Assembly (NCBI GenBank): GCA_963840935.1
Contig: CAWJAS010000001.1
Span: 579,834-643,833, forward strand
Reading direction: 5' to 3'
Length of the DNA stretch: 64,000 nt
DNA from: Candidatus Magasanikiibacteriota bacterium
Lineage (GTDB): Bacteria; Patescibacteriota; Patescibacteriia; Magasanikbacterales; GWA2-37-8
A program made the translations under genes and the position numbers. Position 1 is the first letter of the stretch. Each line of letters begins with the position of its first letter. The notes under the pieces were generated by a model that made no database searches, was not told the origin of the DNA, and was given only the letters and a program-made list of their open reading frames with translations. Positions 17,173-56,820 of this stretch are shown one piece after another.

Positions 17173-17505
17173 TTAAGCCGCGCGTTTAGCGCGAAGACAG
17201 TCAACGCACAAAATTGCTTTGTCGCCGGACGGAATAAATGGCAATTTATCTATATGTTTGCCACAATCCGAACAGTTTACATCAACATCATGCATTTGTC
17301 TTGGACCGCGGTTATCGCGGAAACCGCCACGAGGCGCACTGGCTCTTTTTTCTTGCCAAAACGCGCGATTGCAATCGTTACAATAAACTTTGCGATCGCC
17401 AGACGGTTGGAACGGAAGCTGAGAGATATGGGCTCCGCACTTTGCGCATTCTAAGTCCACATCATACATCGGCTTGTCGTCGTTACCAAAAGACATAATT
17501 TTCAC
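17173..17505 (-). CDS. tandem Cys4 zinc-ribbon protein
   Basis: The protein has two copies of 'D(V/L)D..C..CG.HI..LPF.PSGD+.+.C.DC'. Confidence 0.5.
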   Translation of the reverse strand: MKIMSFGNDDKPMYDVDLECAKCGAHISQLPFQPSGDRKVYCNDCNRAFWQEKRASAPRGGFRDNRGPRQMHDVDVNCSDCGKHIDKLPFIPSGDKAILCVDCLRAKRAA

Positions 17506-17649
17506 AGATCTTAATTCCCAAAAATGTGTTTTGAGATTACTTATTTAATCGACCTTCCGCTTTGTTAAGCGGGATATTTGGGAACTACGCTATTCGCGGC
17601 CCAAAAATTACCGTTATATTATACCACAAAAAAAGGAAAAAGTCAATAG

Positions 17650-19524
17650 CTAATCATCGAACTCAACCACCTGCCCGGGCCTGATCGGATTTGATTTTAC
17701 CGGTTCGGTCGGCTTTGCCTGCTCAATCGGTTTTAATACTGGTGCAGACGGCGGATTATCCGGCTCCGCATTTGATTTGACTATCGGTATGGGATTTAAA
17801 ACAATCGGAGCCGAATTTTCTTCTTCTGCTTCGGCGATTATTTGACTCAAAGGGCGCGGAGCCGGATGATTCCTGGGTTTATCTTGCCTGGCGCCACGCG
17901 ATTGATTAAATTGTTTTTTACCTCCTTTATTTTGCTCATGCTGACCGCCGAATTTTTTTGCGGGCGCGGAATGTTGTGCCGGTCTTTCCTTCTTTTTTTC
18001 CGCCCGCTCGGCCTCGGCCGAAAGCTCTTCGTCGGTTTTTTTCTCTAATTGATCTTTAACCAAAAAATCACCTAATTTTTTTGGCGCGGAAGCCGGAGCC
18101 GGAGCGGGCTCATCTTCACCATCATCTTCTAGGCCAATTTCCAAACCGCTCCATCGTTTAATTTTTTCTTCGATTTTATCCCGTGGTGTGCCATACCGTT
18201 CGCGCGTCACTCTGATAACTTTTTCCGTACTGCCTGTCGCAAATCCAATCGGAGGCAAAGTCAAAGATGAAAATGGCCTGGAAGACACACCGTCAATCAT
18301 TAATTTTAAATAAATATTGAACTTCGGCAAATTTACCAAATCTTCTTCAATAAAAGTCGGCGCGAATTCTTTTGCCAAAATATCGGCATCGGTTGAACCG
18401 ACTCTGTATGTGACCAAACTGCCGACGTTACCGATAACCGCCGCCAAAACTTTTTCATCAAGTTGCTCCATATATTGGTGAGCCATAATCAATCCCAAAC
18501 GGTATTTGCGAGCTTCGGATAAAATATTGGCAAAACTTTCGGTGGCAAAATTTTGGAACTCATCAACATAAAGAAAAAAATCTTTACGCTCCTTTTCCGG
18601 AATATCGACTCTCTCCATTGCCGAAAGTTGAATTTTGGTGATAAGCATACCCCCCAATAAGCGCGAATTGTCTTCGCCAATTCTGCCTTTGGATAAATTC
18701 ATGATAAATATTTTTTTCGTGTCCATCATCTCGCGGATATTGATTCTGGATTTTACCTGCGCCACTATATTTCGAATAACCGAGGCCGATAAAAATTGAC
18801 CGATTTTGTTTTGGATAGGCGCCACCGCTTCCTGCTTGTAGCGGTCGTTATAGGCGGCGAATTCAGTTTCCCAAAAAGCCCTGACCACCGGGTCCTTTAA
18901 ACTGCGCACCACTCGCAAACGATAGTCTTCATCCGCCAAAAGACGATTAATACCGAGTAGTGTAGTATCCGGATAATCCAAAAGAGCAAGAATGGTGTTG
19001 TTTAAAATATATTCCATCCTCGCGCTCCAAACATCCGGCCAGATTTTTTTAAACACGCCCATGAGACCGGATGCCACCAAATGTTTGTGGTCGGGATTAA
19101 CTGTTTCCAAAATATTAAAACCGATCGGATAATTAATATCCGCCGGATTAAAGTAAACCACGTCATTGATGCGATTGGCGGGTATATAATCAATTATTTT
19201 TTCGGCAAAATCACCGTGCGGATCAACCAAACCAACTCCGTGCCCGGCATATATATCATTAAGAACCATGTTTTCAAGCATGGTTGTTTTGCCCATTCCG
19301 GTTTTGCCGACCACATACATGTGCCTGCGTCTGTCGTCCAATTTGATGCCGAATTTTCGGTATTGATTCCTGTAATTCGTCATCCCAAAGTAATTCACTT
19401 CAGCATTTGGCTCCACCAGCGGTTTTTTTTCGATTGGATTGTCATCTGCGTCTGTCATAGCAATATTATACACCTTCCCGGCCTTTTCGTTAAGCGAATA
19501 GCTTGGCAATTTCCGCGACATCAA
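17650..19524 (-). CDS. VirD4/TraD/TrwB-like type IV coupling-protein family ATPase, soluble, with disordered Pro/Ala/Lys-rich C-terminal tail
   Basis: Walker A 'VVGKTGMGKTT' and Walker B 'FFLYVDEFQNF' are present, and 'LIMAHQYMEQL' resembles a TraD/TraG C-terminal motif. No N-terminal TM helices are seen. The start is ambiguous; an internal Met at 19458 would avoid overlap with the HIT gene. Confidence 0.55.
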   Translation of the reverse strand: MMSRKLPSYSLNEKAGKVYNIAMTDADDNPIEKKPLVEPNAEVNYFGMTNYRNQYRKFGIKLDDRRRHMYVVGKTGMGKTTMLENMVLNDIYAGHGVGLVDPHGDFAEKIIDYIPANRINDVVYFNPADINYPIGFNILETVNPDHKHLVASGLMGVFKKIWPDVWSARMEYILNNTILALLDYPDTTLLGINRLLADEDYRLRVVRSLKDPVVRAFWETEFAAYNDRYKQEAVAPIQNKIGQFLSASVIRNIVAQVKSRINIREMMDTKKIFIMNLSKGRIGEDNSRLLGGMLITKIQLSAMERVDIPEKERKDFFLYVDEFQNFATESFANILSEARKYRLGLIMAHQYMEQLDEKVLAAVIGNVGSLVTYRVGSTDADILAKEFAPTFIEEDLVNLPKFNIYLKLMIDGVSSRPFSSLTLPPIGFATGSTEKVIRVTRERYGTPRDKIEEKIKRWSGLEIGLEDDGEDEPAPAPASAPKKLGDFLVKDQLEKKTDEELSAEAERAEKKKERPAQHSAPAKKFGGQHEQNKGGKKQFNQSRGARQDKPRNHPAPRPLSQIIAEAEEENSAPIVLNPIPIVKSNAEPDNPPSAPVLKPIEQAKPTEPVKSNPIRPGQVVEFDD

Positions 19525-46237: not shown

Positions 46238-47191
46238 TTAAATTGCTGAGTTTTGGTACCATTTGTAGGTAGATTCCAATCCTTCTTTCAATTCAAATTT
46301 TGGTTGCCAACCAAGATTATTGACTTTTGAACTGTCCATCAATCTTCCGGGGGTTCCGTCGGGCTTGGTTGTATCCCAAACAATATTTCCTTTGTATCCC
46401 GTAATTTCTTGAATCAAGTTTGCCAAATCTTTGATGTTTATATCTTTTCCAGCGCCCAAATTTACAAATATATCCCCTTTTTCATTTTGCTCTTTGGTCG
46501 GATTCAAATTATTCATGAGAAATATACAACCCTCTGCCATATCATCCACGTGCAAAAATTCACGACGAGGATTGCCTGTGCCCCAAAGTATTACTTCTTT
46601 ATCACCTTTAATTTTCGCTTCATGGAATTTGCGAATCATTGCCGGAATTACATGTGATTTTTCCAAATCAAAGTTATCATTAGGGCCATATAAATTAGCA
46701 GGCATTACGGAAATAAAATTTGTGCCATATTGACGATTGTAACTCTGACACATTTTTATGCCGGCGATTTTTGCCAAGGCGTACGGCTCATTGGTTGGCT
46801 CCAAAGTTCCGGTTAATAAATATTCTTCTTTGACGGGCTCTGGGGCAAATTTTGGATAAATGCAAACCGAACCCAAAAATAAAAGTTTTTTTACTCCGTT
46901 TACGTATGACTGGTGAATAATATTATTTTGAATTTGCAAATTTTCGTATATAAATTGTGCCGGGTATGTATTGTTTGCTTAAATCCCGCCGACTTTGGCG
47001 GCGGCCAAAATTACATACTCCGGTTTTTCTTGCGCGAAAAATTCGGCAGTTGCCTGTTGGTTTGTTAAATCAAGTTCTTCGATAGTGCGATAAACCAGAT
47101 TGTTGTAACCTTGGGCTTGCAAATTGCGGACCAAGGATGAACCGACAAGGCCGGTGTGGCCGGCGATGTAAATTTTGGATGTTTTTTGCAT
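46238..47191 (-). pseudogene. fcl: GDP-L-fucose synthase (fcl) interrupted by an in-frame TAA at 46979-46981
   Basis: The N-terminal part '[19 protein letters not shown]...AAKVGGI*' is followed in the same frame by '[22 protein letters not shown]...[13 protein letters not shown]'. The alignment to E. coli Fcl is collinear across the stop. Confidence 0.6.
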
Positions 47192-47203
47192 AATTTTTAA
47201 ATA

Positions 47204-47437
47204 AAATTCTTCGCTTCGCTCAGAATGACAGGTAACTGGATTCCCGCCTACGCGGGAATGACAGTGTGCGAATAAGATTGCTTCGGCGTCCCTTTGGGAC
47301 TTCTCGCAATGACAGGGCTTCGCTTCGCTACGCCCTGTAAACGCCAGGTTCACTTATTAACTACGCCCTGTAAACGCCAGATTCGCTTCGCTCAGAATGA
47401 CAACGAACTGGATTCCCGATCAAGTCGGGAATGACAA
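47204..47437. repeat. cluster of short GC-rich hairpin repeats (units ending ...cgc(t/a)(cag)aatgaca, and cagggcttcgcttcgctacgccctg) filling gmd-fcl spacer
   Basis: There are at least five sub-elements, and the same units recur at 16043, 16889, 28838, 50921 and 51226. Confidence 0.8.
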
Positions 47438-53964: not shown

Positions 53965-55902
53965 TTATAATTGTACTCGGAATAACCGCCAGTCGGACCA
54001 AGAAGTGTATGTGCCGTCCGTAAACTTTGCGCGGACGCGCACTCTGTATTCATTTGAATATTTGAGGTCCAAACCGACGCTGGTTAAAACTGAAGTGTAC
54101 AATCCTTCTTCAAGCCAGCCGGTGCCCGATTTGTAATTAACATTAATTTCGTATGACACGGCGCCGGTAATGGTATACCAAGTCGGAAAAACATATCGTG
54201 AATATAATGTTTGATTTTCTGTTGGCGTGGAAATGACAGGCGAGGTGTAGCTGTATGATGAGCCGATGTTATAATTGAAATATCTATAATCAGACCAATT
54301 GGTGTAATTGCCGTCACTAAAATTCGCTCTTACTTGAACGCGATATTCATTTGTATAATATAAATATTTAGTCAAATAAAGCGAAGTTACATTTGTGTTT
54401 GATTCAATAAGCCAGTTGCTTCCTGATTTGTATTCAACACGGACATTGTATGAAGTCGCGCTAGGAACTGAATTCCAACGAACAGTCACGGATTGGCTGG
54501 ATGAAAAATATTGGTTCGCATATGGATCGGTGATTGTCGGCGGAGATTGCGGGTTATAATAACTGTCGCTTTGACCAATATTAAAATATCTCCAATCGGA
54601 ATAATTGGTAGTAACGCCATCAACAAAGACACCACGAACACTTACGCGATATTCATTTGTGTATGGAAAGTATTTGGTTAAATAAAGAGAAGTGACATTT
54701 GTGTTTGACTCACTATACCAATTTCCATTTGATTCATATTCGATTCGAACATCATAAGCCGTCGCATTTGTGACCGAATTCCATCTCACGGTTACATTTG
54801 AGCCGGTAGAATAATATTGGTTGGCGTATGGTTCGGTGATGGTCGGGGCAGTGTAGGAATAATTGTTATTACTTTGTCCGACATTGAAATATCTCCAATC
54901 GGAATAATTGGTAGTAACGCCATCAACAAATACACCGCGAACGCTCACTCGATATTCATTTGTGTAGGAAAAATATTTGGTTAAATAAAGAGAAGTGACA
55001 TTTGTGTTAGACTCACTATACCAATTTCCATTTGATTCATATTCAATTCGGACATCATAAGCCGTCGCATTTGTGACCGAATTCCATCTCACGGTTACAT
55101 TTGAGCCGGTAGAATAATATTGGTTGGCGTATGGTTCGGTGATGGTCGGAGCAGTGTAGGAATAATTGTTATTATTGTTGTTGTTTGTGGAATAAGTATT
55201 ATAAAAATATCTCCAAGAAGACCATTCACTTTTGTTACCCAAATTGTCTCCGGCATAAACACGATAGCGGAATTGTCCATCACCCCAATTTGATATGTTG
55301 TAATTAACAGCACTCACGCCGGAAGAAATAATTTGAGAATCCTTGCTTTCCCATTGGCTCAAAGAAGTATTCCATTTATGAACTTCGTAGCCGTATTTGG
55401 TGGCGGAATTCACATCAGACCAATCAAAATATATTGAGGATTGATTATATTGTTCCCCATTGTTTGGAAGATTAATACTTGGTGTGCTTAATTTTGTTTG
55501 ATTTTTGGTATTGAAAGTAAAATATCTATATTCAGACCATTGGCCGACTTGGTTGTTCCACATATTGCCGACCGCGCGCACACGCCAGCGAAATTGATTG
55601 TCGGCTCCGGGAACTGTAACGCTAAAAGTATTGCCGACGACATTATATGTTCTGGCATTTTGCCATTTAATTGTTTTGCTAACGCAAGTGTCGCAAGCGA
55701 TTTCCACTTGATAATTATTGGCTCCATAAATGGAAGTCCAACTGAAATTAGCCATCCTCGGATAATTGGTCAAAACCTGATTATTTGTGGGATAGCTGAG
55801 CGACGGCGCGTTGTAGGCGGCCTTTGCCGGATATGATATGCCAAAAGCCGTAAAAATAACGGCAAAAACTAAAACCCAGTTAAAAATGCGATTCATTTTC
55901 AT
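53965..55902 (-). CDS. secreted/cell-surface protein with four ~100-aa tandem beta-rich (FN3/Ig-like) repeats
   Basis: A signal peptide 'MKMNRIFNWVLVFAVIFTAFGISYPAKA' is present. Repeats 2 and 3 are nearly identical at the DNA level. Confidence 0.6.
   Translation of the reverse strand: MKMNRIFNWVLVFAVIFTAFGISYPAKAAYNAPSLSYPTNNQVLTNYPRMANFSWTSIYGANNYQVEIACDTCVSKTIKWQNARTYNVVGNTFSVTVPGADNQFRWRVRAVGNMWNNQVGQWSEYRYFTFNTKNQTKLSTPSINLPNNGEQYNQSSIYFDWSDVNSATKYGYEVHKWNTSLSQWESKDSQIISSGVSAVNYNISNWGDGQFRYRVYAGDNLGNKSEWSSWRYFYNTYSTNNNNNNNYSYTAPTITEPYANQYYSTGSNVTVRWNSVTNATAYDVRIEYESNGNWYSESNTNVTSLYLTKYFSYTNEYRVSVRGVFVDGVTTNYSDWRYFNVGQSNNNYSYTAPTITEPYANQYYSTGSNVTVRWNSVTNATAYDVRIEYESNGNWYSESNTNVTSLYLTKYFPYTNEYRVSVRGVFVDGVTTNYSDWRYFNIGQSDSYYNPQSPPTITDPYANQYFSSSQSVTVRWNSVPSATSYNVRVEYKSGSNWLIESNTNVTSLYLTKYLYYTNEYRVQVRANFSDGNYTNWSDYRYFNYNIGSSYSYTSPVISTPTENQTLYSRYVFPTWYTITGAVSYEINVNYKSGTGWLEEGLYTSVLTSVGLDLKYSNEYRVRVRAKFTDGTYTSWSDWRLFRVQL
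54584..55190. repeat. 2 x 303-bp near-perfect tandem repeat inside surface-protein gene
   Basis: 'aaatatctccaatcggaataattggtagtaacgccatcaacaaa...' recurs at 54584 and 54887. Confidence 0.8.
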
Positions 55903-56130
55903 ATAAATTATGCGTTATATTAGATAAATTATTAGCTTAATTATAACACTAAATAATAGCATATTTTGAGAGTTTTGTCAATTCCGTTAAATATGGCGAT
56001 TATTTAATGGGGTTAATTATTTTCGACCGTGTAAGTAATTTTTTGGCATTGACAGATAATTAATTTTATGCCAACATATCTAGTTGAAGTAGCCGTACAT
56101 TCCACAACAAACCCAAAGGAGGGGAAAATA

Positions 56131-56361
56131 ATGGGTAATTTGAACAAGACGATAATTTGTGAGGCGGAAGGGTCCAAAAACATTCTTATGAGTGGTCAAA
56201 GAATTTTTCGAGTGATTATCAACAAATCTCGCATCGGAGAAAAACGTAGCGGTCATTTTACAACGGTTAGAGAAGTCTCTGATTGGGTTTTGAAATGTGA
56301 CTGGCTCGAAACTTCCGAGCGGGCTGATATCGTTGAGCGCGCGCGCAAACACTTCGGTTGA
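56131..56361 (+). CDS. small hypothetical protein (76 aa)
   Basis: The RBS 'aaggagggg' lies 5 nt upstream of the ATG, and a terminator follows. Confidence 0.35.
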   Translation: MGNLNKTIICEAEGSKNILMSGQRIFRVIINKSRIGEKRSGHFTTVREVSDWVLKCDWLETSERADIVERARKHFG

Positions 56362-56409: not shown

Positions 56410-56436
56410 GCCGGTTTCACACCGGCTTTTTTCTTT
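56410..56436 (+). terminator. rho-independent terminator
   Basis: 'gccggt-ttcaca-ccggc' is followed by 'ttttttctt'. Confidence 0.55.
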
Positions 56437-56443
56437 GCAAATA

Positions 56444-56472
56444 TTGACTTTTTGGCTAAAATGTGATATAAT
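56444..56472 (+). promoter_or_regulatory. consensus sigma70 promoter with extended -10 (TTGACT-17-TGaTATAAT) driving tRNA-Glu
   Basis: The -35 box is at 56444-56449 and the -10 box at 56467-56472, with a TG at 56463-56464. Confidence 0.6.
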
Positions 56473-56496
56473 ATATGCATTATTTTTCAAAAACAT

Positions 56497-56568
56497 GGCC
56501 CGTTCGTCTATCAGTTAGGACACGGCCCTCTCAAGGCTGAAAGACGGGTGCGATTCCCGTACGGGCTA
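56497..56568 (+). tRNA. tRNA-Glu (anticodon CUC), no encoded CCA
   Basis: It was folded manually. The 7-bp acceptor stem has G1-U72. The D-stem is gtct/ggac. The anticodon stem is cggcc/ggctg and the loop 'cuCUCaa' has U33 and A37. The T-arm is acggg-TGCGATT-cccgt, and the discriminator is A. Confidence 0.55.
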
Positions 56569-56579
56569 CAAATAATAAT

Positions 56580-56606
56580 ATCGGCTTTATGCCGATTTTA
56601 TTATTT
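56580..56606 (+). terminator. terminator after tRNA-Glu
   Basis: 'atcggc-tttat-gccgat' is followed by 'tttattatttg'. Confidence 0.55.
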
Positions 56607-56619
56607 GTATTCTGACCAG

Positions 56620-56782
56620 GGAGTCGCACGGGCAGGAAGTGAGACGTGAAGTTTTTGCGGAAGCAAAAACGAAACGCTTGAACGTCGTCAGACTGCCAGT
56701 GGCAGTCTGACGCTGCCCAGGACAAAGGAGTCGAGCCGATTGTGGTCGGCTCGGCGACGCGGAATTCCCGTACGGGCTACAA
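56620..56782 (+). other. GC-rich structured segment ending with duplicate of tRNA-Glu T-arm/acceptor 3' end; candidate ncRNA or att-site remnant
   Basis: There are perfect hairpins 'cagactgccagtggcagtctg' and 'gagccgattgtggtcggctc'. The 3' 21-mer 'attcccgtacgggctacaaat' is identical to the tRNA 3' end. Confidence 0.3.
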
Positions 56783-56820
56783 ATCCCGCCACTCACGAGT
56801 GGCGGGATTGTTATTTATAT
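56783..56820 (+). terminator. rho-independent terminator
   Basis: 'atcccgccactc-ac-gagtggcgggat' is followed by 'tgttatttatat'. Confidence 0.6.

Follow-up and report, generated by a model that had tools for sequence, protein, structure and literature searches.

Behind a tRNA-Glu(CUC) gene of a Candidatus Magasanikiibacteriota bacterium, in a 64,000-nt stretch of contig CAWJAS010000001.1 (the window; all positions below are window coordinates), lies a 211-bp segment bounded by direct repeats of the tRNA 3' end. This segment, referred to here as the module, is an insertion/deletion polymorphism whose ends are those repeats, and it is neither a transfer-messenger RNA (tmRNA) nor a decaying prophage scar. 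With confidence a little better than even, the module can be regarded as a small protein-less unit that specifies a structured RNA physically coupled to tRNA-Glu(CUC) in some Patescibacteria-like bacteria. Such a conserved RNA would be made by read-through, would act by way of its tRNA-derived ends, and would be gained and lost through the repeats. No description of the module was found in Rfam 15 or in the literature searched.

The module and its empty site

The first-pass annotation of this region had described a tRNA-Glu(CUC) with a textbook promoter and its own terminator, followed by a GC-rich segment with perfect hairpins that ends in the same 21-mer as the tRNA, and then by a second strong terminator. 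All of these features are present (Table 1), as judged by ARAGORN for tRNA and tmRNA calling, by the Rfam 15 covariance models for the family search, and by the match of the promoter to consensus; ARAGORN and Rfam find one tRNA only in the window. The distance of about 190 bp given earlier is the gap between the two copies of the 21-mer, whose starts are 211 bp apart. The 21-mer itself, ATTCCCGTACGGGCTACAAAT, occurs exactly twice in the 64 kb, with 0 such repeats expected in shuffles even when 3 mismatches are allowed. The distal copy is preceded by GACGCGG, a degenerate version of the T-stem 5' strand, which implies a true duplication of about 30 nt of the tRNA in which the 5' half of the T-loop has been rewritten. 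The GC content between the copies is 55-63%, compared with about 16-45% in the surroundings, and perfect hairpins are found at 56686-56698/56700-56712 and 56782-56794/56797-56809. The region from 56606 to 56812 folds at -106.4 kcal/mol, with z = -8.9 against shuffles.

Table 1. Positions of the features that make up the tRNA-Glu(CUC) locus and its module in the window
Feature	Position	Strand	Details
Sigma-70-type tRNA promoter	56444-56472	+	TTGACT, 17-nt spacer, TG-extended TATAAT; 11/12 consensus matches
tRNA-Glu(CUC), CCA not encoded	56497-56569	+	ARAGORN 56497-56569; Rfam tRNA 50.9 bits, 56497-56568
Proximal 21-nt repeat copy	56553-56573	+	tRNA A58 to A73 plus trailer CAAAT
First terminator (hairpin E), element-borne	56567-56609	+	19-bp arms, starts in tRNA trailer; core stem 56580-56596, then T-run; -18.6 kcal/mol, z = -7.7
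Insertion relative to the L043 empty site, 211 bp	56574-56784	+	equivalently 56553-56763; boundary ambiguous inside repeat
Anti-T motif GGGAGUCGCAC	56619-56629	+	reverse complement of tRNA G53-C63 (GUGCGAUUCCC), one G-U in window; also P1 5' strand
P2 domain	56630-56718	+	closing helix GGGCAG/CUGCCC, 56630-56635 with 56713-56718
Hairpin P2a, inside P2	56651-56670	+	GGAA tetraloop; 1 compensatory pair
Hairpin P2b, inside P2, perfect 12 bp	56686-56712	+	4 compensatory pairs
Purine-rich conserved junction AGGACAAAGGA	56719-56729	+	predicted unpaired
Hairpin P3	56730-56755	+	GUCGAGCCGAU / GUCGGCUCGGC, loop UGUG; U-G pairs present; 93.9% of cells paired
P1 3' strand	56759-56769	+	GCG, GA bulge, AUUCCC; overlaps distal repeat start; 9 pairs, 100% paired
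Distal 21-nt repeat copy (spare tRNA 3' end)	56764-56784	+	A58 to A73 plus CAAAT
Native tRNA terminator, now 3' of module	56782-56819	+	12-bp GC-rich stem 56782-56809, then GTTATTTAT, U-rich

Relatives were gathered by a JGI metagenome scan for the unusual T-arm and acceptor strand of this tRNA, which returned 34 loci with a tRNA-Glu(CUC) of the same sequence. About 14 distinct loci lack an encoded CCA and about 19 are GC-rich and encode it. The full module is present at 4 of the ~14 distinct CCA-less loci and at 0 of the ~19 GC-rich, CCA-encoding loci. The four lineages that carry it are the window itself, a sister species close to it (L053), an organism represented in two samples (L038, identical to L058/L059), and L023.

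The closest relative, L043, provides a precise empty site. The upstream flank is 98.5% identical to that of the window and the downstream flank 95.7%, and in L043 the tRNA is joined straight to the second terminator, with a thioredoxin-like gene beyond. The native terminator hairpin thus directly adjoins the tRNA in L043, and the first terminator of the window, hairpin E, is missing there. Hairpin E is a 19-nt inverted repeat (56567-56585/56591-56609) and is homologous to a hairpin in L038, with compensatory changes between the two. A single tRNA with the second terminator immediately behind it had been proposed, in the first-pass annotation, as the arrangement in relatives that would mark an ancient remnant; this is what L043 has, but the other relatives keep the element under apparent purifying selection.

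The sister species L053, whose neighbouring protein is 86% identical, carries the module at the same position, with 5 small differences from the window that all fall at unpaired or G-U-tolerant positions. In L038/L058 and L023 a homologous segment lies behind the same tRNA and the downstream genes are different; L058 shares its upstream gene order with the window, the proteins concerned being only 32-35% identical. Mean column identity between the window and L038 over the ~170-nt core is 87%. The module of L023 is a diverged, shorter form with a truncated second copy beyond its distal repeat, and in L036 only the first ~17 nt of the core remain.

In the L053 species, three Logan contigs (L054, L055 and L056), each from a different sample, begin inside the element, at model positions 42, 50 and 94, which points to a heterogeneous population or to assembly breaks caused by the repeats. 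Apart from that of L053, the neighbouring genes were not informative about further sites: relatives of the thioredoxin-like neighbour at 81-84% identity (L001-L003) have no tRNA at that place, and relatives of the L038 neighbour protein are not syntenic, with a tRNA-Glu(UUC) or no tRNA there.

The predicted RNA and its alternative folds

In all four lineages the ~170-nt core follows one architecture, in which helix P1 is predicted to enclose P2 and P3 and is followed by a single-stranded copy of the acceptor 3' strand. The 5' strand of P1 is the anti-T motif, which in its general form, GGGAAUCGCAC, is the exact 11-nt antisense of the T-loop and T-stem of the tRNA. This motif (GGAATCGCAC, with at most 1 mismatch) lies 49-54 nt past the tRNA in the window, L053, L038/L058, L023 (twice) and L036, and it is found in no other tRNA-Glu(CUC) locus having enough downstream sequence to judge. 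The pairs of P1 are formed by GGGAGU with AUUCCC and, across the GA bulge, by CGC with GCG; an A-U pair has become G-U in the window. The junction between P2 and P3, read together with G56730, the first base of P3, forms the Shine-Dalgarno-like sequence AAGGAG; P3 itself contains a tandem G-A/A-G mismatch in L038. On the 3' side of P1 the acceptor 3' strand and discriminator, GUACGGGCUA, are predicted to be unpaired, and the native terminator follows. The earlier description of the segment as a possible tRNA-like noncoding RNA is only loosely apt, in that the module RNA contains a tRNA 3' strand and a T-arm antisense but has no cloverleaf or acceptor stem of its own.

The sequence comparisons suggest, on thin evidence, that selection acts on an RNA of the tRNA-sense strand. 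A 46-pair structure was laid on an alignment of three distinct rows (window, L053 and L038), and 98.5% of the cells proved to be paired. Double compensatory changes occur at 5 pairs (4 in P2b and 1 in P2a) as against 0 in all six slid controls, the observed covariation value is reached by 4 of 500 shuffles, and neither P2a nor P2b contains a pair-breaking substitution. In the three lineages tested (window, L038 and L023) the fold of the plus strand is more stable than that of the minus strand by 9-13 kcal/mol, because G-U pairs are present only on the tRNA strand. Compensatory helices combined with strand asymmetry are the general mark of a conserved structured noncoding RNA, and both are seen here at the low depth of 3 rows. 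The same layout recurs in L023 with unrelated helix sequences: the junction closed by P1 holds two long hairpins with a purine-rich GGAG stretch between them.

These observations bear directly on the idea that the module is a neutral by-product, that is, a quasi-palindrome and tandem duplication born of template switching or slippage at the tRNA terminator and spread by recombination, its conservation reflecting recent transfer. Template switching and slippage occur preferentially at palindromes and direct repeats, and the anti-T motif, hairpin E and the 3' part of the tRNA together make up a long interrupted palindrome. This account must nevertheless accommodate the five double compensatory changes and the unbroken pairs of P2a and P2b, the placement of all five window/L053 differences at tolerant sites, the topology retained by L023 despite entirely different helix sequences, and the persistence of GC-rich perfect helices in an AT-rich genome. 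A neutral origin is judged very unlikely, even though the module is dispensable (L043) and decaying (L036) and the block-wise pattern of identity described below indicates recombinational exchange.

The searches for coding potential and for known families were negative. There is no conserved open reading frame (ORF) in the 211-bp insert; the small ORF behind the AAGGAG motif was rejected as a candidate, its frames not being conserved among the window, L038 and L023, and a six-frame "spurious ORF" chimera found no match in a collection of 5.8 billion proteins. For tmRNA, Rfam gave nothing on the window at gathering threshold or up to E = 10, and nothing up to E = 0.1 on L023, L053 and L059. No other Rfam family matched the core of any of the four lineages either, the only matches being terminator-driven chance ones far under the gathering scores. 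The Rfam 15 families covered, none of which matched, include the group I intron, T-box, signal recognition particle (SRP) RNA, 6S, YrlA and small ribozymes. SRP RNA and 6S RNA were considered separately and set aside; neither has an Rfam match, and the GGAA hairpin lacks the SRP internal loops. The first-pass annotation had already argued against a standalone tmRNA, and ARAGORN and Rfam agree, the tmRNA mode of ARAGORN finding the tRNA only and the Rfam tmRNA models staying silent. The module has no acceptor stem of its own and no [AG]G[CU][CU][CU]GU partner outside the upstream tRNA, its distal "T-arm" is a 4-bp stem with a 5-nt loop and no T-loop, and there is no conserved tag frame, the frames differing among the window, L038 and L023 with no shared peptide that ends in a stop. 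The internal hairpins were also considered as terminators of lost genes and rejected as such, since they have no U-tracts on either strand.

No promoter-like site was found between the first hairpin and the core, and the tRNA promoter is the only one upstream of the module. The module RNA would accordingly have no promoter of its own and would arise from the strong tRNA promoter by read-through of the first, element-borne terminator, with transcription stopping at the second. Co-transcription of the kind known for tRNA 3' trailers receives indirect support from this combination of no internal promoter and two terminators.

Two mutually exclusive folds of such a transcript can be modelled, their energies having been obtained by explicit evaluation under a nearest-neighbour model. 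In fold A the tRNA cloverleaf would form and P1 would close the module. In fold B the anti-T motif would pair with the proximal T-arm, the first hairpin would lengthen into an irregular helix of about 35 bp, and the 5' acceptor strand of the tRNA would pass to the distal spare 3' end and pair with it beside a 4-bp mini hairpin. On these models the anti-T strand has two possible partners, closing the module as part of P1 or pairing instead with the tRNA upstream. For the transcript from tRNA to second terminator, the global minimum of free energy is fold B in 4 of 4 lineages, 8-21 kcal/mol below a cloverleaf with the module folded independently. The 4-bp hairpin of fold B, GCGG-AAUUC-CCGU, stands directly against the acceptor stem in the window, L053 and L058, and in L058 and L023 the D-arm and anticodon arm are intact. 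The CGCAC part of the anti-T motif is conserved, P1 uses it only partly, and P1 of L023 hardly uses it at all; conservation beyond the need of P1 argues that pairing with the tRNA T-loop matters.

These folds would point to a mode of action by mimicry or remodelling of tRNA-Glu and not by a protein product, and the RNA might serve as a processing or decoy substrate or as an "expanded" tRNA-Glu. The last of these roles can be stated as an explanation in its own right, in which the read-through transcript is itself a functional, tmRNA-like molecule that could undergo processing, acquire a CCA end and perhaps be glutamylated. It would combine the 5' acceptor strand, D-arm and anticodon arm of the tRNA with the distal mini T-arm and 3' strand, and would carry a domain of about 215 nt on the variable-region side. 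The predicted ground state in all four lineages, the intact D-arm and anticodon arm in L058 and L023, the abutting hairpin and acceptor stem in the window, L053 and L058, and the retention of CGCAC, needed for T-loop pairing and only partly for P1, are all in keeping with such a molecule. Without a T-loop motif, however, the mini T-arm could not form a canonical tRNA elbow, and co-transcriptional folding and fast processing by RNases P and Z favour the normal tRNA. There is also no tag ORF, the ORFs after AAGGAG not being frame-conserved, and the tmRNA models of ARAGORN and Rfam are silent. An expanded tRNA-Glu as the functional product is considered very unlikely.

Several points weigh against the view of the module as a conserved tRNA-coupled RNA. 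With four independent lineages, two of them close to each other, the covariation rests mainly on one comparison, that of window/L053 with L038, and the covariance model could not align L023 helix by helix (17.6 bits). P1, the P2 closing helix and the anti-T motif are invariant, so that covariation neither supports nor contradicts them, and recent horizontal transfer, instead of constraint, could account for the high sequence identity seen in distant hosts. The nearest-neighbour prediction behind fold B takes no account of tRNA tertiary structure, modification, co-transcriptional folding or rapid processing by RNases P and Z. The RNA may also be scarce, should the first terminator prove efficient. 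Finally, the module is sporadic among the CCA-less loci (4 of ~14), can be dispensed with in L043 and is decaying in L036, and such sporadic presence fits a selfish or neutral element no less than a useful one.

Gain, loss and mobility

Gain, precise loss and tandem duplication of the module would proceed by homologous or unequal recombination between the tRNA-derived repeats, for which a dedicated integrase would not be needed. Alleles would be exchanged by homologous recombination across the near-invariant tRNA, and unequal crossing-over and slippage between the repeats would leave one product precisely without the module and the other with a tandem duplication. Such exchange, crossing-over and slippage would explain the repeat lengths, the block-wise identities and the tandem remnant in L023. 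The repeat in L038 is 55 nt long and takes in the hairpin, while in the window the identity ends at CAAAT, where the native terminator known from L043 begins. Different parts of the locus also yield conflicting trees, the flanks grouping the window with L043 and the tRNA-module block grouping it with L053. The L053 tRNA promoter is identical to that of the window, and promoter plus tRNA are 100% identical over 148 nt, compared with 90.5% in the downstream flank and ~90% across the flanks; in L043, by flank sequence the nearer relative of the window, the surroundings of the promoter differ and no module is present. Directly upstream of the -35 element the window and L053 have GCAAATA (window 56436-56443) and L043, otherwise the nearer of the two, has GTTTATG (462-468), a cluster of changes that coincides with presence or absence of the module.

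The first-pass annotation had raised the possibility of an att-site duplication left by an integrated element that later decayed. The att-like half of this proposal is borne out by an insertion with a tRNA 3' repeat and by the empty site of L043. The decay is not, as the core is kept in the sister species and in two distant lineages with compensatory changes, and no mobility gene was found in it or nearby. Measured against what is expected of integrative elements, the locus has tRNA 3' direct repeats with an intact tRNA and an empty attB (L043), and it has no internal integrase.

A version of the integration idea that dispenses with decay would make the module an att-only element, miniaturised or reduced by deletion from a tyrosine-integrase element directed at the tRNA-Glu T-loop and mobilisable in cis by an integrase acting in trans, for example from a phage or integrative element. 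The module would then consist of attL and attR with just the attP arms between them, and the hairpins would be arm or regulatory features. In favour of this explanation, the directly repeated tRNA 3' part begins within the T-loop, the insertion leaves a complete tRNA, and the site is found precisely empty in a relative. The degenerate T-stem strand GACGCGG before the distal copy gives the imperfect dyad expected of a core-type site, and a target that is regenerated and used repeatedly would fit the tandem remnant in L023. The size of the insert, 211 bp, is close to that of a minimal lambda-type attP. In IMG/VR, moreover, three viral or proviral contigs (L004, L005 and L007) have an end at a tRNA-Glu gene with this same 3' end, GATTCCCGTACGGGCTA, the start of L005 falling within the tRNA; the three are consistent with use of tRNA-Glu as a prophage attachment site in other lineages.

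What an att-only derivative fails to account for is, first, the lack of any partner. No integrase, excisionase, transposase, recombinase, reverse transcriptase or TnpB-like domain was found in the insert or in a domain search of all window ORFs of at least 100 aa across the 64 kb, which otherwise holds housekeeping genes and a polysaccharide biosynthesis cluster; nor does a recombinase lie beside the copies in L038, L058, L023 or L053. A larger version of the element was seen at no locus, and no integrase-bearing relative was found in viral contigs. Second, the same compact architecture recurs in four lineages, unlike the outcome of independent internal deletions. The compensatory helices and one-strand G-U pairs point to RNA and not to protein sites on double-stranded DNA, and the repeat length varies, 21 versus 55 nt, as homologous exchange would give. 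An att-only element is considered unlikely, and exchange between repeats around a conserved RNA is the preferred account of the module.

Wider searches for copies and relatives of the module gave little. The covariance model finds no second module in the window or in other tRNA-Glu loci. BLAST against GenBank phages matched the tRNA part only, and against plasmids it matched nothing. Junction and motif pattern scans of viral contigs gave no real match and one chance match in a GC-rich coding region, with the fixed 30-nt spacer of one pattern being mis-set. A scan of genome contigs for the 20-mer gave 10 single matches, none labelled Patescibacteria (8 are labelled Bacteroidota), and the covariance model finds the element in 0 of the 10.

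Two further kinds of mobile sequence were tried and rejected. A repetitive extragenic palindromic (REP) or miniature inverted-repeat transposable element (MITE) type of repeat does not suit a sequence that the covariance model finds as a single copy in 64 kb. A guide RNA of the TnpB/IscB type would have no TnpB, IscB or transposase domain in the window to serve it, and its 21-nt "guide" would equally be the proximal copy, so that empty and occupied sites would be indistinguishable.

A more elaborate scheme, which is quite unlikely, would make the module an RNA device with an 11-nt guide, complementary to the T-loop junction of the tRNA upstream, and a spare 3' end. Upon read-through it might strip the T-arm and re-close the acceptor stem, giving a processable and perhaps charged tRNA-Glu of ~280 nt with a structured cargo; alternatively, the guide and spare end might direct homing, at the RNA or recombination level, into naive tRNA-Glu(CUC) genes.

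The tRNA, its neighbours and comparison with known systems

The tRNA-Glu(CUC) is itself unusual, with a D-loop, AUCAGUUA, that lacks GG and a T-loop, UGCGAUU, with G at position 55. Among contigs L018-L051 it is nearly base-identical in those that are AT-rich and CCA-less (Patescibacteria-like) and in those that encode CCA and have 52-59% GC, and its occurrence across such different genomes would reflect either unusually strong conservation or horizontal spread. Thirteen of the GC-rich contigs (L020, L021, L025, L026, L028, L030, L034, L035, L041, L042, L045, L048 and L049) have a conserved ORF about 30-130 nt past the tRNA, starting ...PFQIIFNPTSAAELA(K/R)MPKELQL.ILGEFRGLP, so that the pairing of tRNA-Glu(CUC) with this ORF is conserved there. 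In L032 a 73-nt spacer (579-652) between tRNA-Glu(CUC) and tRNA-Met adopts a three-way-junction fold (z = -5.7) and contains GCGAUUCCCCGUGG, a sequence similar to the 3' half of the T-arm of tRNA-Glu; this spacer could represent either a reduced form related to the module or a processing structure that has no relation to it.

Upstream of the tRNA the window has a small ORF (56068-56361, + strand) whose likeliest start is ATG 56131, behind AAAGGAGGGG. It is 100% conserved in L043 and 32% identical in L053, and L058 has an unrelated 69-aa ORF instead; the small upstream ORFs of the window and L058 show no homology, hence provide no conserved partner for the module. Further upstream, at 53965-55902 (- strand), lies a gene for a 645-aa secreted protein with two near-identical tandem repeats of ~105 aa and a weak Ig-like match; L058 has a larger homologue at the same position (830 aa, ~33% identical). 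An NAD-dependent epimerase gene appears to be split into two ORFs (46238-46939 and 46979-47353, - strand), one matching the N-terminal and the other the C-terminal part of the Pfam model, and the split could be a frameshift, a pseudogene or a sequencing error. A homologue of a TrwB-like type IV coupling protein (17173-19524, - strand) adjoins a treble-clef zinc-finger protein in a region that is otherwise housekeeping.

If the RNA is real, it would be a candidate noncoding RNA family for the Patescibacteria, a very large and poorly understood group with reduced genomes, and its design would be unusual in the tie to a single tRNA, the borrowed tRNA 3' end and the T-arm antisense. The module is in any case a clean natural example of a protein-less segment gained, lost and duplicated by way of tRNA-derived repeats. 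It also has practical consequences for annotation, where "tRNA + partial tRNA repeat" is normally read as a prophage scar, and for assembly, given that the element interrupts Logan contigs from three samples. The predicted switching of the tRNA between its normal form and an extended, remodelled form lends itself to direct testing.

Several known systems resemble the module in part. With group I introns of bacterial tRNA and tmRNA genes it shares a compact, GC-rich insert of ~200 nt and an internal complement of both sides of the junction (GUGCG|AUUCCC), which recalls an internal guide sequence. The module differs from them in having no Rfam group I match, no junction U-G and a site in the T-loop and trailer rather than the anticodon loop; moreover, splicing is not needed for a complete tRNA, since a 3' end is supplied by the insert itself. 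The likeness to tmRNA (SsrA, including the two-piece form) is that a tRNA-type acceptor 3' strand with discriminator ends a larger structured RNA, and that the alternative fold closes a large domain by an acceptor stem. Unlike tmRNA, the module lacks its own acceptor 5' strand, a T-loop, a conserved tag frame and G3-U70, and its tRNA part is Glu.

RNAs derived from tRNA 3' trailers exist, an example being the 3' external transcribed spacer of leuZ in E. coli. Like these, the module lies in a tRNA trailer, shares the strand of the tRNA, lacks its own promoter and is bounded by intrinsic terminators, but it is much larger, multi-helical, situated past the first terminator, and equipped with a duplicated tRNA 3' end and a T-arm antisense. 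Noncoding RNAs that mimic tRNA, such as bacterial YrlA/Y RNAs, viral tRNA-like 3' structures and mascRNA, likewise have a tRNA-derived end that possibly recruits tRNA-processing enzymes. In those RNAs, however, the acceptor/T-arm mimic is autonomous, whereas the module has the 3' strand only, its acceptor stem requires the 5' strand of the upstream tRNA, and it has no Rfam match.

Further parallels are with integrative elements that target tRNA 3' ends (prophages and islands of tyrosine integrases, with the T-loop sublocation) and with their gene-less derivatives mobilisable in cis. There, too, the repeat starts in the T-loop, the tRNA is kept by the copy on the element, empty sites are precise and tandem remnants occur. 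The module is unlike these elements in that it has only ~190 bp between the repeats, carries no integrase or cargo, varies in repeat length, and has an interior that evolves as an RNA of the tRNA strand. The pattern of duplication is the classic signature of tRNA integration, and what sets the module apart is its tiny, protein-less, RNA-conserved interior and the built-in antisense to the T-arm.

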